IMG/VR virus record: IMGVR_UViG_3300045988_005956
Span: 1 to 43,327 of that record
DNA from: a virus
Reading direction: 5' to 3' (one strand)
Length of the DNA stretch: 43,327 bases
The position numbers were made by a program, and so were the translations under genes. Of this stretch, positions 19,598 to 26,634 are shown piece after piece; within the stretch, counting starts at the first letter, position 1, and the number at the start of each line of letters is the position of its first letter. The notes below the pieces were generated by a model, which searched no databases, had not been told where the DNA came from, and saw only the letters and a program-made list of their open reading frames with translations.

Positions 19598-19771
19598 TCA
19601 CCTCCACGCTTCTGTAAACACCGTCCAGAACACGATATCGCGGTACGTGACCTTCTGCTCCTGAGTCGATTCGGGCGGATTCGCGCATGTGTAGCGGAAC
19701 CACTCCCGCCATCTGTTGCACATGCAATTCTCCCCGCGCCCCTTCGTGCAGCTCTCACAAGGGTGCTCCAT
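19598..19771 (-). CDS. Small Cys/Trp-rich protein (57 aa), below the ORF-track cutoff
   Basis: The manual translation is MEHPCESCTKGRGENCMCNRWREWFRYTCANPPESTQEQKVTYRDIVFWTVFTEAWR. A GGGGG RBS lies 6 nt upstream. The ORF fills the otherwise empty gap exactly. Confidence 0.5.
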   Translation of the reverse strand: MEHPCESCTKGRGENCMCNRWREWFRYTCANPPESTQEQKVTYRDIVFWTVFTEAWR

Positions 19772-19772
19772 A

Positions 19773-20015
19773 TCATGCCCCCGTAAGCACCGCGCCGACG
19801 AAGAAGCACGCCGCCGCCCGGAACAGGCCGAAGCCCAGCATAACCGCCGTACCGCCCAGCAGCATACACGCCACAGAGAAGCAGGCCGTTTCCGCGATCT
19901 TCATCAGGCTCTTTTGCCGCTTGCGAAGCCGCACGATCTCATCCCACCTTTCGCCAAGCTCGCGCTCCCGCGCCGCCCGGTGGTTTAACTCCGTGATAAT
20001 TTCAACGTCACTCAT
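19773..20015 (-). CDS. Small membrane protein
   Basis: The start MSDVEII... follows GGAGGC. The C-terminal half is hydrophobic (FSVACMLLGGTAVMLGFGLF..FFVGAVL). Confidence 0.5.
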   Translation of the reverse strand: MSDVEIITELNHRAARERELGERWDEIVRLRKRQKSLMKIAETACFSVACMLLGGTAVMLGFGLFRAAACFFVGAVLTGA

Positions 20016-20820
20016 TCTCTGCCTCCACAAATTCGCCGCACATGATATTCTCCGGCTTGGTCTTCGCGATAATTTTTCTGTATTCGCTTGTGATTCTCAC
20101 GCGGAGGCCTGCGTAAATGCCAAACTCACAGCCTGCCTCGATGCCATAGCCTGCCTCGATGCCATAGCCTGCCTTGATGCCATAGCCTGCCTCGATGCCA
20201 TAGCCTGCCTTGATGCCATAGCCTGCCTTGATGCCATAGCCTGCCTTGATGCCCCAGCCTGCCTTGATGCCCCAGCCTGCCTCGATGCCCCAGCCTGCCT
20301 CGATGCCACAGCCTGCCTCGATGCCATAGCCTGCCTTGATGCCATAGCCTGCCTTGATGCCATAGCCTGCCTCGATGCCTTCGCCTGCCTCGATGCCACA
20401 GCCTGCCTTGATGCCATAGCCTGCCTTGATGCCATAGCCTGCCTTGATGACATAGCCTGCCTCGATGCCACAGCCTGCCTCGATGCCACAGCCTGCCTCG
20501 ATGCCACGGCCTGCCTTGATGCCCCAGCCTGCCTCGATGCCCCAGCTTGCCTTGATGCTTCCGGAAACTTCTAGCCGTCCAGCAAAAATGATTGATTTTT
20601 CGGTGATCAGATCGCCGTCGACCTTCCGGACATCATCCGTCCTGCCGAATTCTGAAAGCAGCCATAATCCGTAACTGAAATTCTTCTCCGCGCAGCAGTC
20701 CAGCAAATCCTGATACTCTACGCCATCCGGATACTTTTCTTGCGGGAATTCTTTCAGAAAATCCATGTATCCAGCTGCACATGCGCCTTTCTCCCGCAGG
20801 AGCTCCTTTGTAATTTTCAT
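20008..20820 (-). CDS. Hexad-repeat protein: a 90-aa unique N-terminal domain followed by about 25 x G-I-(E/K)-A-G-(Y/W/C)
   Basis: The AAGGAGG RBS precedes the ATG at 20820 (MKITKELLREKGACAAGYMDFLKEFP...). The reading frame was chosen by continuity with the non-repetitive N- and C-termini. Confidence 0.75.
   Translation of the reverse strand: MKITKELLREKGACAAGYMDFLKEFPQEKYPDGVEYQDLLDCCAEKNFSYGLWLLSEFGRTDDVRKVDGDLITEKSIIFAGRLEVSGSIKASWGIEAGWGIKAGRGIEAGCGIEAGCGIEAGYVIKAGYGIKAGYGIKAGCGIEAGEGIEAGYGIKAGYGIKAGYGIEAGCGIEAGWGIEAGWGIKAGWGIKAGYGIKAGYGIKAGYGIEAGYGIKAGYGIEAGYGIEAGCEFGIYAGLRVRITSEYRKIIAKTKPENIMCGEFVEAENE
20107..20562. repeat. Tandem 18-bp repeat array (about 25 units, consensus GCCTGCCT(C/T)GATGCC(A/C)(T/C/A)A on the plus strand)
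   Basis: The array is read directly. Units differ at essentially three nucleotide positions, and there are no spacers. Confidence 0.95.
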
Positions 20821-20876
20821 TTCATCCTCCTTAAATAATCTTCCTTGCCGAGTGGGGCTTTTCTGTTTGCTGCATA

Positions 20877-21274
20877 GCCTTTGCGTCTCTGAGCCCTTCG
20901 CAGCCCTGCCGCCGCTACGCATTGCTGAGCTTTACATTGCCTTTGCCATGCCGATCAATGCCCATCTCTGCCCTTGCCTGTCGAAGCAAAGCGCGCGTTA
21001 CTACGCCGTTGCCAATCCTTGCTTTACTTCGCCCTTGCCACGCGATCTTTGCTTTACTTTGCCTTTGCCGCGCCAGTCCAGGCCTCGCCGCGCGGCTCAT
21101 AGCCCTCGCGTCGCTTATCCTAGCCTTTCCATCGCAAAACATAGCATCCCATGCCGCCGCGAAGCCAGACTATTCTTTGCCTTTGCGAGGCACATCAAAT
21201 CTCTACAGTGCCGTTGCCACGAATTGCATAGCAAAGCCTTTGCGTACCCAGCATTGCAATACCAAGCCTTTGCT
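20877..21274. repeat. Iteron-like array: at least 10 copies of GCC(T/C/G)TTGC(C/G/T), including three about-25-bp units GCTTTAC(A/T)T(T/C)GCC(T/C)TTGCC
   Basis: Copies start at 20877, 20939, 20970, 21005, 21031, 21061, 21179, 21210, 21236 and 21266. The long units are at 20929-20953, 21021-21045 and 21051-21075, and the last two form a 30-bp tandem. Confidence 0.8.
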
Positions 21275-21381
21275 TCGCTAGAAGCGTCCGGCGCTTTCGA
21301 CGCGATGAAATCCCGCGCCACGTTCTCATTGCTCGGCCACGTGCCAAGCACAGGCTCCAAAAATGTTAATCTGACTTTCAT
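21115..21381 (-). pseudogene. Probable remnant of a conserved early phage gene. The N-terminal about 33 aa are intact, then the ORF runs into the repeat array.
   Basis: An RBS (GGAAGGA) precedes MKVRLTFLEPVLGTWPSNENVARDFIASKAPDA, which resembles the N-terminus of a larger Firmicutes phage protein family. The remaining 55 aa are encoded by repeat DNA and look non-protein-like. Confidence 0.35.
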
Positions 21382-21439: not shown

Positions 21440-21682
21440 TTAGTAATCAAAGGAGTCCAAAAACTCCTCCCGCGTGATTCCAAGCCGCTTGCAAATTGCG
21501 ATTGTCCCTTTCATCTGCTCACCCAATGGCTCGCGCATTCGCTTTGTCAGCGTCGTTTTGCTTGATACCCCGGCAAGTTTAAGCAGGTCATCTAGTTTTA
21601 CGTTTCTCTCCTTTACCCTCCCATAAATCAGGCGGGACAGGTTCTTCGACGTATTGTCCCGGCTGAACTTTACCGCTGGCAT
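21440..21682 (-). CDS. Small HTH regulatory protein (DUF739-like; Xis-like role possible)
   Basis: 80 aa with LDDLLKLAGVSSKTTLTKRM. An AAAGGAGGG RBS precedes it. It is the second gene of the early leftward operon. Confidence 0.6.
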   Translation of the reverse strand: MPAVKFSRDNTSKNLSRLIYGRVKERNVKLDDLLKLAGVSSKTTLTKRMREPLGEQMKGTIAICKRLGITREEFLDSFDY

Positions 21683-21683
21683 G

Positions 21684-21878
21684 TTATCCCTCCTTTTTCG
21701 GCTTCAAAAGCTCGTCCACTGTGCAGCCGTACAGCTCTGCGATTTCGTGCAGTCGCGCCGTCTTCGGGTACATCTGCCCGGTTTCCCATAGATAAACAGA
21801 TGCGTCCGAAACCTTTAGCGCCTTGACTACCTGTTGAACGGTCAATCCAGCGGCAAGCCTCGCTTCCTTAAACCCCAT
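21684..21878 (-). CDS. Cro-like XRE-family HTH repressor
   Basis: 64 aa with LTVQQVVKALKVSDASVYLWETG. It is divergent from the CI-like gene. Confidence 0.8.
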   Translation of the reverse strand: MGFKEARLAAGLTVQQVVKALKVSDASVYLWETGQMYPKTARLHEIAELYGCTVDELLKPKKEG

Positions 21879-21905: not shown

Positions 21906-21930
21906 ACTAAGTTTTTCTTGACAACTTAGT
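21906..21930. promoter_or_regulatory. Operator-like inverted repeat ACTAAGTT-N9-AACTTAGT overlapping the -35 box
   Basis: The repeat is seen directly. Related half-sites (CTTAGT/ACTAAG) recur at 21437-21443 and around 22391-22435. Confidence 0.45.
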
Positions 21931-21945
21931 GAATTGTGCTATTAT
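21918..21945 (+). promoter_or_regulatory. Sigma-A type promoter TTGACA-N16-TATTAT with an extended -10 TGc
   Basis: TTGACA lies at 21918-21923, TG at 21937-21938 and TATTAT at 21940-21945. It points toward the lysogeny genes. Confidence 0.6.
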
Positions 21946-22030
21946 GAAAGTACCACCTATCATTATCCACAATCCGTTAAGTTGTCCGGGGCGTTGTTCT
22001 TTTCACGCCTCATAAGCCGAGGCATGAATC

Positions 22031-22252: not shown

Positions 22253-22478
22253 CGGAAGGCAATGACCGCACGCGCAATGGAACGTACCGAACTCGTCATA
22301 TCCGCAGTCTGAACCAACAATCTGAAATCCCCATATATACTTGTCTTTCTTCACGCCATCACCTCACTTGTAAGTTTTGCCCCTCACAACTCTTAGTATA
22401 GTTAAGTATATACTAAAAGTCAATAAAAACTTAGGATTGTTAAGGGTGCTTTTTTGCCAAATTTATGAGGGATTTTTT

Positions 22479-23069
22479 ATGCAATTTGACGTACAGTCCG
22501 TTATAAGAAGAATAGAAATAAGGCTTGCTGAAATTGGAATGACAAAGCAAGAGTTTTACGAAAAAAGCGGAATATCGTCTGGTTCTTTCTCTCAGTGGAA
22601 CACGGGGAAACACGCGCCAAGTATAAAGAAAGTTCAACGTGCAGCCAGTGTAATTGGGGTAACGACAGAATATCTCTTATATGGCGTAGACCCAATGCCG
22701 GACTTTGCGGTTAAATCGCCCATAGTCGCACGAATCAACTCCCTGCTTGCTGCAAAAGGTATACCGAAACAGCAGTTTTATAAGGATTGCAGTATTACGT
22801 CTGCATCGTACTCTCTATGGAACACAGGGAAAACAAACCCTTCTATGAAAAATCTTAAAATTATCGCAGAATATCTCGGTGTATCCGTGGCAGACCTGCT
22901 GCCGGACGAGGACCTCGTTCCGCAGGAGGGCATAAAAAAAGAGCGCCCCGCCGATGGCGAAGCGCCCGATCAAGACATGCTTCTTGAAATCGTAAGAGAT
23001 AGTCAAGATATGTCTTTCCTGCTGAAAGTAATGGATGAAGTAAATAAGAGTATACAAAAATTGCAGTAA
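22479..23069 (+). CDS. CI-like repressor with two tandem XRE HTH domains
   Basis: The ATG at 22479 follows GAGGGA. HTH 1 is MTKQEFYEKSGISSGSFSQWNTGKHAPS. HTH 2 is IPKQQFYKDCSITSASYSLWNTGKTNPS. Confidence 0.8.
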   Translation: MQFDVQSVIRRIEIRLAEIGMTKQEFYEKSGISSGSFSQWNTGKHAPSIKKVQRAASVIGVTTEYLLYGVDPMPDFAVKSPIVARINSLLAAKGIPKQQFYKDCSITSASYSLWNTGKTNPSMKNLKIIAEYLGVSVADLLPDEDLVPQEGIKKERPADGEAPDQDMLLEIVRDSQDMSFLLKVMDEVNKSIQKLQ

Positions 23070-25070: not shown

Positions 25071-25652
25071 ATGTCGGCAATTCAGGAACTCGCCCCATAT
25101 TTTTCTACATATCAGAGGAACATAAAGCGGGCGAAGGAAGATCAGCATTACACCATCGACAGACTTGTCGAAGAATCCGGCGTTTCCAGATCGGCTGTGA
25201 CGAAACTCTGCGCAGGAACACAGCAAGACCCGAAACTGTACAATTCTGCCGCGCTATGCCTCGTTCTCGGTCTGTCGCTGGATGAGCTGTGCGGGCTAAA
25301 ACCGCCTACTGACAGTCCAAGCGAACTACAGGAGCGGAACCACAGGCTTGAACTCGAGAACGTCAGAGCGGCCGCCGCAAACGAAATGCAGCGGGCGCAG
25401 ATCAAAGCCACACACGCTATCTGCTACCTGCTGGCCTTTTTCTGCGCCATACTTGCGTTTTCGCTGATCGTGTACCTTGTTATCGACTCGCAGATTACAG
25501 ACGCTGGTATTATCCGGGGCGGAAGGCTATCTGTAATGGCGTGGATATTTATTGCCTTGATTGTCGCGTCCATACTGGCCGTAGGCTTCACCATTCTTCG
25601 TATCGTCAAAAAGGAGATCCGAAATGAAAAAACTGAAAGTCCCAGAGGCTGA
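25071..25652 (+). CDS. Membrane-anchored XRE-family HTH protein (HTH, coiled coil, then 2 TM helices)
   Basis: The RBS is GGAGGT. The HTH is YTIDRLVEESGVSRSAVTKLCAG. The TM segments are ICYLLAFFCAILAFSLIVYLVI and VMAWIFIALIVASILAVGFTIL. The 3' end overlaps the int start by 29 nt. Confidence 0.7.
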   Translation: MSAIQELAPYFSTYQRNIKRAKEDQHYTIDRLVEESGVSRSAVTKLCAGTQQDPKLYNSAALCLVLGLSLDELCGLKPPTDSPSELQERNHRLELENVRAAAANEMQRAQIKATHAICYLLAFFCAILAFSLIVYLVIDSQITDAGIIRGGRLSVMAWIFIALIVASILAVGFTILRIVKKEIRNEKTESPRG

Positions 25653-26634
25653 AAAACTGCCGTCCGGCTCTTACCGATGCCGAGTGATGGTAAATGGGGA
25701 AGCGAGGTCGTTCACTGCCGGAACGAAGCGAGAAGCAGAGCAGGCAGCTTTAGAATACAAAATCGGTATCCTTTCTGCCGAGGAGGCCAAGCCGGAAATA
25801 ACAATCCGCAAAGCCATAGACGAATACCTGGAATTCAAGAGCGGCACTCTTTCCCCAGCGTCTATTCGCGGACACAGAATCAAGCAACGGTGTTACCTTC
25901 AACCTATTATGGATGTCCCCTTATCCAAACTCTCCGTGAGTGCTATACAGCAGGCGATCAACGCCGAAAAATGCAGCCCGAAGACCATCCGCGAAACATG
26001 GGCGCTGATACGTCCGGCGCTTAAGCGATATGGTGTATCATACGAAGTGGCGCTTCCCACCGTCCAATCTGACGAGCACGCTTTTTTGTCTGCGGAAGAA
26101 ATTCCTGTGTTTTTGAAAGCGGCAGAAGGGAGTAAGTATGAAATCGCGTTTCTTCTTGCACTGCACTCTCTGCGTGTGTCAGAAATTCTTGGTTTGCGTT
26201 GGGAGAACGTTGATCTAAAAAAGCAGTCTATCACGGTTCGAGGAGCTACATTGTTCGACGAAAACAACAAACTGGTAAACAAAGTGTCTAACAAAAACCG
26301 CTCTTCACGGCGGACTATCCCAATCATGGTACCGAGGCTGTCGCAGCTGCTTTCAGAAGCAGAAAGATCGAGTGATTTTGTCATCGTTGCAAATCCGAAC
26401 AGCATTCGCGCTGCATCAAATAAAATATGCAAGGAAGCGAATTTGCCAGAAGTCGGGACACACGGTCTGCGGCATTCCTTCTGCTCCCTTGCATATAAGC
26501 TTGGTATATCGGAAAAAGTCACGATGCAGCTGGGCGGATGGTCAGACTACGGAACAATGCGTAAAATCTATACACACATCGCACAAGCAGACATTTCCGA
26601 GTCTGTGCAGGAAATGAAAAAGTTCTTCTCTTAA
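25624..26634 (+). CDS. int: Tyrosine recombinase / phage integrase
   Basis: 336 aa with LALHSLRVSEILGLRWENV...HGLRHSFCSLAY...GGWSDYGTMRKIYTH, which is the R..HxxR..Y pattern. Confidence 0.9.
   Translation: MKKLKVPEAEKLPSGSYRCRVMVNGEARSFTAGTKREAEQAALEYKIGILSAEEAKPEITIRKAIDEYLEFKSGTLSPASIRGHRIKQRCYLQPIMDVPLSKLSVSAIQQAINAEKCSPKTIRETWALIRPALKRYGVSYEVALPTVQSDEHAFLSAEEIPVFLKAAEGSKYEIAFLLALHSLRVSEILGLRWENVDLKKQSITVRGATLFDENNKLVNKVSNKNRSSRRTIPIMVPRLSQLLSEAERSSDFVIVANPNSIRAASNKICKEANLPEVGTHGLRHSFCSLAYKLGISEKVTMQLGGWSDYGTMRKIYTHIAQADISESVQEMKKFFS

Follow-up and report, generated by a model that had tools for sequence, protein, structure and literature searches.

The window analysed here, meaning the whole 43,327-nt stretch of viral DNA that makes up IMG/VR record IMGVR_UViG_3300045988_005956, contains a minus-strand gene with an internal array of near-identical 18-bp units, situated within a leftward transcription unit whose features are as follows.

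19773 to 20015, minus strand: downstream 80-aa gene for a small protein with a hydrophobic tail (open reading frame list; ATG at 20013-20015)
20008 to 20820, minus strand: coding sequence of the solenoid protein, 270 aa by translation (ATG at 20818-20820; stop at 20008-20010)
20011 to 20130, minus strand: C-terminal cap, aa 231-270, C-EF-GIYAGL...KIIAKTKPENIMCGEF (two alignments and model)
20131 to 20562, minus strand: hexad array of 24 head-to-tail 18-bp units, aa 87-230, x-G-I-(E/K)-A-G (in-frame parse, Tandem Repeats Finder and one model strand per hexad)
20563 to 20640, minus strand: irregular first solenoid sides joining the cap to the array, aa 61-86 (model strands)
20641 to 20820, minus strand: N-terminal helical cap, aa 1-60, four helices (DSSP of the model), YdhT_N (PF27195)
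20826 to 20832, minus strand: ribosome-binding site AAGGAGG, 5 nt upstream of the ATG at 20818-20820 (sequence reading)
20838 to 21289, minus strand: conserved non-coding leader of about 450 nt, upstream of the solenoid gene (repeat search)
21684 to 21878, minus strand: Cro-like HTH gene that heads this leftward early transcription unit (PHROG transcription-regulator matches)
21969 to 21941, minus strand: promoter-like site (promoter scan)

Translated from the ATG at 20818-20820, the solenoid protein begins MKITKELLREKGACAAGYMDFLKEFPQEKYPDG. The open reading frame list extends the frame further, to 20922, but the start was placed at 20820 because every homologue of the protein begins at MKIT. 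The well-initiated N-terminus with an AAGGAGG site described by an earlier, sequence-only reading of this DNA was confirmed, on the minus strand. Tandem Repeats Finder reported a repeat at 20130-20558 with period 18, 23.8 copies, 93% matches, 0% indels and a score of 634, which together with the in-frame parse bears out the head-to-tail array of the same reading and its exact residue inventory (Y/W/C, one R and one E), while its estimate of about 25 units ending at 20107 is revised to 24 hexads running from 20562 to 20131. The x residues, in array order, are S W W R C C Y Y Y C E Y Y Y C W W W Y Y Y Y Y Y. Hexad 1 is degenerate (GSIKAS), and the would-be unit 25 is interrupted by a two-residue insertion (C-EF-GIYAG). 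Units 2-24 follow NNN GGC ATC RAG GCA GGC, with the frequent variable bases being the second and third of the x codon (TAT/TGT/TGG) and the first of the E/K codon (GAG/AAG); outside this pattern are single instances of CGT (Arg), GAA (Glu) and GGC>GTC (Gly>Val), and there are zero synonymous differences among these units.

The downstream 80-aa gene shares its first 8 nt with the end of the solenoid gene, stop codon included, an arrangement that suggests translational coupling, and the same overlapping gene was found at related loci L002, L003 and L005; its product has no PHROG match. The leader carries about seven degenerate copies of a motif of ~29 nt recovered by the repeat search (TTTACTTTGCCTTTGCC on the plus strand) and is conserved in L002 and L003, and neither the solenoid gene nor this 450-nt leader has an Rfam match. 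Upstream of the solenoid gene are the cro-like HTH gene and the promoter-like site, and downstream are Sak, RecE-like and SSB genes. An early-operon position directly after cro had been proposed from the sequence, of which the location downstream of the cro-like gene stands, but the solenoid gene is the third or fourth gene of the unit. At related IMG/VR loci the gene most often has recombination genes and a transcriptional regulator for neighbours, and clustering of neighbouring open reading frames across 80 such loci revealed no widely conserved partner, with the biggest cluster present at 16 of the 80. The closest relatives of the phage in genome collections lie in Oscillospiraceae gut MAGs. 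The hexad-array gene is a genuine early gene of a temperate gut phage.

An AlphaFold2 model of the window protein (pLDDT 91.2, pTM 0.86) agrees with a second AlphaFold2 model, of a relative with 8 hexads (pLDDT 88.5), and DSSP assigns one strand of 3-4 residues (G-I-E/K-A) to each hexad, with G-x as the turn. The models support the beta-solenoid suggested earlier. The accompanying proposal of three hexads per turn is supported by two separate sets of sequences, in each of which opposite E/K charges show an enrichment specific to lag 3 (z 4.3 and z 3.0). The ladders of stacked aromatic or Cys residues that had been envisaged do not appear to exist, as x residues at lag 3 are neither more identical nor more aromatic and the order of x along the arrays is close to random. 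With this near-random order, a bulk-property role for the array fits as well as specific recognition. The model places strands at residues 64-67, 71-73, 77-79 and 82-85 of the region linking cap to array, in which G81 is invariant among 65 diverse family members, and at 234-237, 249-252, 259-261 and 263-266 of the C-terminal cap. Conserved residues are G12, C14, G17, F21, Y36, Q37 and L40 in the N-terminal cap (invariant alignment columns) and P256, N258 and G262 in the C-terminal cap. Neither model matched the PDB at E<=1e-3 with Foldseek, the top hits all being non-superposable LbH enzymes, and Foldseek against BFVD returned only two phage homologues, both uncharacterised.

The N-terminal domain, previously left in no family, can be placed as YdhT_N. 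The assignment rests on sequence comparison: the Pfam label PF27195.1, named YdhT_N, is precomputed on 118 of the best 120 homologues, hhalign aligns the family profile with the N-terminal part of E. coli YdhT at a probability of 95.9% (E 5e-9, 66 columns), and BLASTP aligns residues 1-27 of the window protein to YdhT at 44% identity. The window protein has no Pfam, PHROG or NCBIfam match at cut-off, the local Pfam being one without the PF27195 model, and no PADLOC model matches. There are 965 homologues among the candidates scored in a 5.8-billion-protein database, 307 clusters at 50% identity, 281 matches in IMG/VR and only 6 genome loci in a search with one of the family alignments, with family members occurring in gut, soil and plant-pathogen phages; Ralstonia phages Gerry and Bakoly carry members among blocks of small unannotated genes. 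Because chromosomal, non-phage members also exist (Bordetella bronchiseptica, L009, and E. coli YdhT), the combination of YdhT_N and solenoid is not intrinsically a conflict device. No paper on the PF27195/YdhT hexad-repeat family was found in the literature.

Among 65 diverse members, the FapA solenoid model (PF03961) matched 26 at E<0.01 (best E 1.1e-9), with P0222 the sole member among those checked individually to exceed the gathering score (34.4 bits against 31). Bactofilin (PF04519) weakly matched four of the 65 (best E 3.6e-4, below the gathering score), and MinC_C (PF03775) matched two, the best being the Bordetella member at 27.4 bits against a gathering score of 33.2. The window protein matched neither FapA/DUF342 (PF03961) nor MinC_C, and did not match Bactofilin even at E<=10. 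Sequence matches in the PDB to 5vj4 (E 1.4e-8, a GVGPEA repeat) and 9e5c (E 6e-17, an E/A/T-rich repeat) were set aside as low-complexity artefacts, and those to designer PPR proteins reflect a single helical hairpin in the N-terminal cap.

Across related phages the array ranges from 4 to 35 hexads. At L002, L025 and L026 the flanks are identical to those of the window gene (258/258 and 123/123 nt), and the next 407 nt downstream match at 407/407 in L025 and L026 and at 396/407 in L002, with these loci having 4 or 9 hexads vs 24 in the window. L014 has 22 hexads between flanks matching at 255/258, 123/123 and 407/407 nt, independent contigs from other phages have 30-35 units, and proteins with 100% identical flanks were found with 4, 5, 6 or 8. 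The copy-number polymorphism expected of relatives is thus strongly confirmed, at 4-24 units between identical flanks, as is the concerted evolution expected of near-identical units.

Family-wide, the fixed positions of the hexad are occupied by G in 74%, I in 98%, E/K in 90%, A in 100% and G in 96% of cases, with Lys at 43% and Glu at 47% of the E/K position, while no residue exceeds 19% at x, which is mostly Trp, Glu, Ser, Cys or Leu. Variation is confined to the x and E/K codons in both the window and the family, and most arrays lack synonymous differences (0/131 for one of 33 units, 0/140 for one of 35). The excess of non-synonymous over synonymous differences in the arrays is a qualitative one. 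Selection need not be the whole reason for the zero synonymous variation, which could stem in part from assembly collapse or very recent amplification. In these respects the array fits the class of repeats with high internal conservation and hypervariable sites, an evolutionary and not a homology class, as exemplified by the sensor surfaces of fungal NLRs, in which near-identical repeats have a few sites under diversifying selection (PMC4986451, PMC1805685, PMC12222747). All three bases of the x codons vary, with no restriction to adenines, and DGR-type mutagenesis was dropped as a source of the variation on these grounds.

It is somewhat unlikely, though a reading to be taken seriously, that the gene and its repeat are real but the length of 24 units is an assembly artefact, with a different true copy number. 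The number of identical units in a row is beyond what De Bruijn assemblers can count, and x is identical at lag 1 in 57% of cases in the window array vs 11% in the family. Further, 11 of the 80 related IMG/VR contigs terminate inside the array, the exact 270-aa protein has no identical record in a 15-billion-protein collection, and short-read assemblies of near-identical repeats are unreliable (PMC12222747). However, comparable or longer arrays are present in independent contigs, namely the 22 units of L014 and the 30-35 units of other phages, and L014, L025 and L026 share the W-W-W-Y-Y-Y... unit style of the window.

The best explanation of these observations, held tentatively at a little short of an even chance, is that the gene encodes a soluble, non-enzymatic, capped beta-solenoid rod that is made early and binds a macromolecule via a fast-diversifying surface. 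The models place a cap at either end, the four-helix YdhT_N domain at the N-terminus and a conserved beta cap at the C-terminus, with each hexad predicted to form one side of a triangular coil and three hexads (18 residues) one turn. Judging from the strand register, the core would be filled by Ile and Ala, leaving Glu and Lys on the faces, where they would tend to pair with an opposite charge one turn away, and the x residue (here Trp, Tyr or Cys) in the G-x turn at the coil corners. The rod would be expressed from the leftward early operon of the temperate phage and would bind a host or competitor macromolecule via its repetitive surface. Slippage or unequal recombination of 18-bp units may then alter its length and shuffle the x and E/K residues, a process by which surface diversification would far outpace point mutation in the rest of the gene. 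Recognition surfaces in genetic conflicts typically evolve in this way, and the rod may have a conflict role.

A more specific form of the explanation, which is unlikely as a whole, is that the array is a programmable recognition surface in which each hexad contributes one specificity residue (x) and one charge switch (E/K), continually rebuilt by slippage of the 18-bp units. The array would in that case be a minimal beta-solenoid counterpart of the TALE RVD or of NLR HIC repeats, used in phage conflict with hosts or rivals, and its cellular relatives would constitute an undescribed AAA+ ATPase/solenoid/FtsZ-like system in defence-island-like neighbourhoods.

Those cellular relatives also raise an alternative of low probability, in which the rod targets FtsZ/tubulin-type polymers or the host division machinery, as an early division inhibitor resembling lambda Kil or MinC in role. 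A distant cellular branch has a conserved operon in which a double-AAA ATPase gene is followed by a YdhT_N solenoid gene and then an FtsZ/tubulin gene (L094 and L095), and at L013 solenoid and FtsZ are fused in one 829-aa open reading frame (P0212), followed by a second FtsZ. In lambda, kil is located just upstream of the recombination genes, and the solenoid gene occupies such a position here; some family members also weakly match MinC_C and Bactofilin. However, the link to FtsZ is found only in one sub-branch, whose N-terminal cap is about 35-40% identical and whose repeats are irregular, whereas the phage loci have no FtsZ or AAA neighbour and other family members lie in unrelated contexts. 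The MinC_C and Bactofilin matches, moreover, are below gathering scores, and the window protein matches none of these models.

A prophage-encoded sensor or exclusion factor that would shield the lysogen from other phages, and use the surface of the variable array for recognition, is less probable still. In its favour, the AAA-partnered cellular relatives adjoin WYL regulators, a SIR2 gene, a NERD-UvrD helicase and the candidate defence gene PDC-S08, and near-identical repeats with hypervariable sites are typical of immune sensors (PMC4986451). However, the gene belongs to the lytic early operon that follows cro and lies apart from the repressor-side genes that a lysogen expresses, no effector domain or partner was found across the 80 IMG/VR loci, there is no PADLOC match, and the gene is also present amid the small unannotated genes of Gerry and Bakoly.

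The sequence-only reading had raised two further roles, neither of which fared well, and its broader idea of an anti-defence role is speculative. A self-polymerising cytoskeletal filament of the bactofilin type is very unlikely: four of the 65 family members weakly match the Bactofilin model and a Bacillus-phage 'polymer-forming cytoskeletal protein' is a weak Foldseek match (rank 32, E 0.23), but bactofilins polymerise through exposed solenoid ends, and end-to-end stacking looks unlikely here because conserved caps cover both ends of the solenoid in the models. Variable length is also not a known bactofilin trait, and the window protein itself lacks the match. A DNA-mimicking or anti-restriction protein like those with pentapeptide repeats would account for an early gene and for what is modelled as a rod-like solenoid with regularly spaced charges, but it is strongly disfavoured because the net charge of the array is about 0 (13 acidic and 13 basic residues, pI 6.5); the charge of the whole protein is only -6.5, the period is 6 and not 5 with no pentapeptide Pfam match, and Lys is about as frequent as Glu family-wide. 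Least credible is a function of the array as DNA, in the form of iterons or a set of protein-binding sites inside the gene, to which the zero synonymous variation within arrays, the dominance of the GGC ATC ... GGC unit even in Ralstonia phages and the proximity to replication and recombination genes could point, but the DNA word is not conserved because lineages use different synonymous codons (GCT/GCA/GCC/GCG, GGC/GGT/GGA and ATC/ATT/ATA), the protein pattern persists without a DNA repeat in divergent members, the Bordetella copy among them, and frame, caps and predicted fold are all conserved.

The hexad family is widespread, with no experiment or annotated homologue that gives a function, and to our knowledge the hexad is among the shortest and most regular of protein repeats. 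Genomes with no other difference in the gene and its surroundings differ in the number of repeats. Should the array be a diversifying binding surface, it would represent both a very compact natural scaffold for evolving specificity and, within the early operon of temperate gut phages, a new class of gene for phage-host conflict, and the operon and fusion with AAA ATPase and FtsZ-paralogue genes in bacteria suggest FtsZ as a concrete, testable partner. Hexad arrays also break or distort short-read phage assemblies, and catalogues probably misreport the gene.

Among the closest known proteins is E. coli YdhT (b1669), which has the N-terminal helical cap in common with the window protein (the hhalign match above), followed by a repetitive Gly-rich beta region within about 270 aa. 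However, the YdhT repeat is irregular, with a period of about 9 (…ARIATAGYA / AQIASMGYS…), YdhT lacks the Cys of the G-A-C-x-x-G motif, and it is encoded by the last gene of the chromosomal ydhYVWXUT oxidoreductase cluster rather than by a phage. FapA/DUF342 (PF03961) gives the best sequence-profile match to the solenoids of divergent members, but FapA proteins, which serve in the assembly of polar flagella, have neither the YdhT_N cap nor a near-perfect hexad array. Bactofilin and the C-terminal domain of MinC are likewise small triangular beta-helices with G-x-[IV]-x-A-like sides, and the FtsZ link of one cellular branch echoes the target of MinC; the hexad protein differs from both in lacking a membrane-targeting peptide, and we know of no variation in repeat number in either. 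Bactofilins polymerise via free ends, whereas the hexad protein is capped at both ends in its models; bactofilins themselves are described in bioRxiv 10.1101/617639 as small beta-helical proteins forming non-polar filaments. Pentapeptide-repeat proteins such as Qnr and MfpA are also repetitive beta-solenoid rods, but with a period of 5, a quadrilateral coil and the strongly acidic character of DNA mimics, in contrast to the neutral array here, and no pentapeptide-repeat model matches the hexad protein by profile.

The LbH acyltransferases (LpxA, LpxD and GlmU; PF00132) share a six-residue period, an aliphatic residue at i and three repeats per turn, and are the top Foldseek matches by local similarity. 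Their motif, [LIV]-[GAED]-X2-[STAV]-X, calls for a small residue at i+4, where the window instead has W/Y/C/R/E and the family W/G/E/C/R/D/L/Y. No Hexapep model (PF00132/PF14602) matches the window protein at E<=10, Hexapep-type models gave one weak match only among the 65 diverse members (LbH_EIF2B), and the NCBIfam LpxD match to the window protein scores 19.9 bits vs a cut-off of 207. The LpxD, LpxA and GlmU structures are not superposable (TM 0.1-0.25, rmsd 12-14 A), the best LbH matches as a group having E >= 1.4e-3, TM 0.10-0.27 and rmsd 11-15 A, and no catalytic loop or His was identified in the hexad protein. Identity as a hexapeptide acyltransferase was rejected on the lack of a Hexapep match, the residue at i+4 and the lack of superposition, in agreement with the original view that this is not a classical member of that group, the LbH structures giving a TM of about 0.2.

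In mode of evolution, the closest counterparts of the hexad array are the HIC repeats of fungal NLRs (the WD40 repeats of HET-E/HET-D, ANK and TPR), which likewise consist of near-identical DNA repeats showing concerted evolution, repeat-number polymorphism and a few hypervariable sites per repeat, and for which, as here, short-read assemblies are unreliable (PMC4986451, PMC1805685, PMC12222747). The two differ in fold, with beta-propellers or alpha-solenoids in the HIC repeats and a predicted beta-solenoid here, in unit length (34-42 aa vs 6 aa), and in that the hexad protein is a phage early protein without an NTPase or effector domain. TALE repeats, like the fungal HIC repeats, follow the same evolutionary logic as the hexad array.

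The hexad-array gene that the sequence-only reading had placed at 20008-20820 is real, borne out by its open reading frame, ribosome-binding site, homologues and Tandem Repeats Finder, and the protein quoted there is the 270-aa minus-strand translation from the ATG at 20818-20820. An alternative, longer in-frame ORF begins at 20922; because all homologues begin M-K-I-T, 20820 is taken as the start.

20008-20820, minus: solenoid gene, ATG 20818-20820, 270 aa (translation)
20826-20832, minus: ribosome-binding site AAGGAGG, 5 nt upstream of the ATG (sequence read)
20130-20558: tandem array, period 18, 23.8 copies, 93% matches, no indels, score 634 (Tandem Repeats Finder)
20562..20131, minus: 24 hexads x-G-I-(E/K)-A-G, residues 87-230 (in-frame parse)

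Tandem Repeats Finder returned no other repeat scoring above 90 in the window. Array units 2-24 read NNN GGC ATC RAG GCA GGC, in which the x codon is TAT, TGT or TGG (CGT and GAA once each), the E/K codon is GAG or AAG, and GGC has become GTC in one unit; the in-frame parse found no synonymous difference in any unit. Two long ORFs over the array in other frames or on the other strand, at 19687-20574 (+; 295 aa) and 20097-20507 (-; 136 aa), are mechanical by-products of the repeat; their translations consist of ACLDAI- and MASRQA-type repeats, and gene callers could mistake them for genes.

The solenoid gene is a conserved member of a large, uncharacterised family, known just from a Pfam domain to which no function is assigned. 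There were 965 homologue matches at E<=1e-3 among the candidates scored from a 5.8-billion-protein database, 307 clusters in a library clustered at 50% identity, and 281 confirmed loci on IMG/VR viral contigs. Homologues also occur in GenBank phages, among them the Ralstonia phages Gerry, Bakoly, Eline and Jenny, where each is annotated 'hypothetical protein'; genome-collection matches come from gut MAGs, Oscillospiraceae among them, and from one Bordetella bronchiseptica chromosome. The window protein has no at-threshold match in the local Pfam, PHROGs, NCBIfam and PADLOC libraries. Its N-terminal domain, earlier considered unplaceable, has a family, YdhT_N, though not a function, since PF27195 (named YdhT_N in contig look-ups) is the precomputed label on nearly every homologue, and hhalign matches a profile built from 65 diverse members to the N-terminus of E. 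coli YdhT at 95.9% probability. The E. coli protein (L004:6748-7560, K-12) has this N-cap in common, but beyond it carries a different repeat of about nine residues, in about 13 irregular copies of x-x-[IV]-x-x-x-G-x-x, and to judge from these sequences is probably a different solenoid type beneath the same cap. The B. bronchiseptica member (L009:6001-6885), with irregular hexads, lies among ordinary metabolic genes, its neighbours being an aminotransferase, RraA-like and AhpD-like genes and an ECF sigma factor; no phage genes are nearby, so the YdhT_N-solenoid module is not restricted to phages.

The solenoid proposed earlier proved largely correct in prediction, the AlphaFold2 model from a 59-sequence alignment having a mean pLDDT of 91.2 and a pTM of 0.86. 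The predicted N-cap comprises four helices across residues 5-58, the array an unbroken series of 3-4-residue strands, exactly one per hexad, with G-I-(E/K)-A as strand and G-x as turn, and the C-cap four strands around a conserved FG[IV]YAGL...KP.N motif. A relative with eight hexads and identical flanks (P0011) has the same predicted plan (pLDDT 88.5). From the strand register, Ile and Ala would face inward and x would lie at the corners. Coil size was tested from sequence by comparing opposite charges at the E/K position with shuffled arrays, lag by lag. At lag 3, opposite charges were enriched in 73 arrays from protein searches (60.0% against 51.5% shuffled, z 4.3) and in 54 separately parsed IMG/VR arrays (52.0% against 47.6%, z 3.0), effects that are modest and drawn from related sequences; no other lag was significant in the 54 IMG/VR arrays. 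This lag-specific enrichment agrees with the suggested three hexads per turn and is consistent with 18 residues per turn and Glu-Lys pairs between stacked turns. With the usual solenoid rise of ~4.8 A per turn, 24 hexads would lengthen the rod by about 3.8 nm and 4 hexads by about 0.6 nm.

The remarkable part of this gene family is the extreme change in array length between near-identical flanks (4-24 hexads), a copy-number polymorphism stronger than had been guessed from the window. Hexad counts of 4, 5, 6 or 8 occur in proteins that match the window protein at 100% in both the 86-aa N-flank and the 40-aa C-flank, and up to 30-35 hexads occur in other phages.

DNA flanks of the solenoid gene in related loci compared with the window (N-flank; C-flank; downstream; hexads)
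L002: 258/258 nt; 123/123; 396/407; 4
L025 and L026, two different metagenomes: 258/258 nt; 123/123; 407/407; 9
L014: 255/258 nt; 123/123; 407/407; 22
Window: reference; 24 as assembled

Synonymous differences in the four constant codons are absent from most arrays (0/131 across 33 units, 0/140 across 35 units), that of phage Gerry included. Synonymous codon choice differs by lineage (GCT, GCA, GCC, GCG; GGC, GGT, GGA), so the homogeneity is within arrays, and it points to concerted evolution or recent amplification. Variation is restricted to the x and E/K codons; the commonest x codons across the family are TGG, GAG, TCG, TGT and TTG, no single residue makes up more than 19% of x positions in the whole family, and the order of x along arrays is approximately random. 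A DNA-level function such as that of iterons is argued against by the lack of a conserved DNA word across lineages. In one of the Serratia symbiotica evolution lines, a gene annotated ydhT_1 acquired an in-frame 54-bp deletion (PMC12505973), which would fit repeat-mediated length change in a YdhT-like gene.

The 24 hexads are a count as assembled, runs of identical units being uncountable by short reads, and the exact 270-aa protein is on record nowhere in a 15-billion-protein collection. The array interior is the contig end in 11 of 80 related IMG/VR contigs, and because many contigs end there, the array is a frequent break point of short-read phage assemblies, often setting arbitrary contig ends. 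Contigs ending in the array at the locus 3' end are L018, L029, L035, L042, L048, L051, L054, L057, L062, L065, L067 and L081; many such IMG/VR contigs are ~40 kb. The window array is unusual in being Tyr-rich and in its runs of same-unit neighbours (identical x at lag 1 in 57%, against 11% in the family set), a pattern left by recent duplication of single units or by guesswork of the assembler.

As a temperate phage, the window has the following features around the gene.

25624-26634: integrase; the equivalent gene in the related loci L002 and L003 carries Phage_integrase
22377-23069, plus: two-HTH repressor-like gene
near 21918-21969: divergent promoter-like sites (promoter scan)
21684-21878, minus: cro-like HTH gene, first of the leftward early unit
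21440-21682, minus: 80-aa gene, second in that unit, after the cro-like gene
20838-21289, minus: conserved ~450-nt non-coding leader upstream of the solenoid gene
19773-20015, minus: 80-aa hydrophobic-tailed protein gene, its ATG overlapping the solenoid stop by 8 nt
leftward beyond 19773-20015: small genes, then Sak-like annealing protein, RecE-like exonuclease, HNH-like ORF and SSB

The early position claimed for the gene stands, but it does not immediately follow cro: the second gene and ~600 nt without a long minus-strand ORF intervene. One part of this stretch is what remains of a 194-aa gene: L002 and L003 have it intact, whereas ~680 bp are missing from the window and nothing but the gene's N-terminal codons is left. 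The gap lies at ~21279-21289, inside remnant ORF 21115-21381 (-); the switch regions of L002 and L003 are otherwise ~99% identical to the window. The other part is the leader, in which a ~29-nt motif (TTTACTTTGCCTTTGCC on the + strand) recurs about seven times in degenerate form, alongside a single 15-nt inverted repeat; the leader has no Rfam match and could hold regulatory protein-binding sites or an origin. The product of the overlapping downstream gene, charged in its N-terminal half and hydrophobic in its C-terminal half, has no PHROG match; the gene is kept in gut-phage relatives L002, L003 and L005 and absent from the Ralstonia phages. None of the neighbouring genes recurs widely across the 80 IMG/VR loci (the largest cluster covers 16/80), the commonest being recombination genes and regulators. 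Gerry (L001:6001-7732) and Bakoly (L012:5001-6768), phages of different genera, carry the solenoid gene followed by the same string of four small genes, an arrangement suggestive of a mobile cassette of early genes.

The function proposed, tentatively and with slightly more doubt than belief, is that of a non-enzymatic rod made early in infection and acting by binding. Three corner lines of x residues, together with the Glu/Lys faces, would make up its binding surface, whose diversity would be maintained because the target varies. An attractive and testable version of this binding rod would have it bind FtsZ or the division machinery, which is unlikely and rests on a distant operon occupied by one cellular branch with long irregular arrays.

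L094:3860-8075 and L095:2-3296: double-AAA ATPase (~700 aa), YdhT_N solenoid, FtsZ/tubulin gene, in that order
L013:3959-10112: solenoid and FtsZ as one 829-aa ORF (P0212), with a second FtsZ next
L096:1807-6610: WYL regulator, solenoid and AAA ATPase adjacent

Neighbours in this branch include WYL regulators, SIR2, a NERD-UvrD helicase and the candidate defence gene PDC-S08. The fusion and the gene neighbourhood together suggest that solenoids of this kind are physically linked to FtsZ-type proteins in a defence-island-like setting, and the AAA/solenoid/FtsZ set may be an undescribed conflict system. The FtsZ link is confined to one sub-branch, other members lying in unrelated places, and no FtsZ or AAA partner was found at the 80 IMG/VR phage loci. 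The DNA-mimic role raised earlier is disfavoured, because acidic and basic residues number 13 each in the array, and family-wide the frequency of Lys falls little short of that of Glu.

Among known solenoids, the FapA/bactofilin/MinC group is the one that this solenoid most resembles, at the limit of what can be detected, since among the 65 diverse relatives 26 match the FapA (DUF342) solenoid model, four Bactofilin and two MinC_C, mostly below gathering scores; of members individually checked, P0222 alone exceeds the FapA cut-off, and the window protein is filed as a member of none of the three. Unlike in bactofilins, both solenoid ends are capped in the models of the window protein and P0011, which argues against end-to-end polymerisation and hence against the filament role once suggested. 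In line with the earlier view, and to the extent that comparisons of sequence and fold can decide, the protein is not an acyltransferase: the Hexapep profile has no match in the window protein or the 65 relatives, position i+4 of the left-handed hexapeptide (LbH) motif is here x, a bulky or charged residue, the NCBIfam LpxD model gives 19.9 bits where its cut-off is 207, and the Foldseek matches in the PDB, solely to LbH enzymes (LpxD, LpxA, GlmU; best E 1.4e-3), with TM 0.1-0.27 and rmsd 11-15 A across >200 columns, amount to local similarity without global superposition. In mode of evolution, the array resembles the sensor repeats of fungal NLRs, which combine near-identical units, repeat-number polymorphism and few hypervariable sites per repeat, are unreliable in short-read assemblies, and have their variable sites on the binding surface under diversifying selection (PMC4986451, PMC1805685, PMC12222747). 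The likeness is to that mode alone, and the window protein is thus a repeat protein, predicted to fold as a capped beta-solenoid, whose units evolve in an NLR/TALE-like manner.
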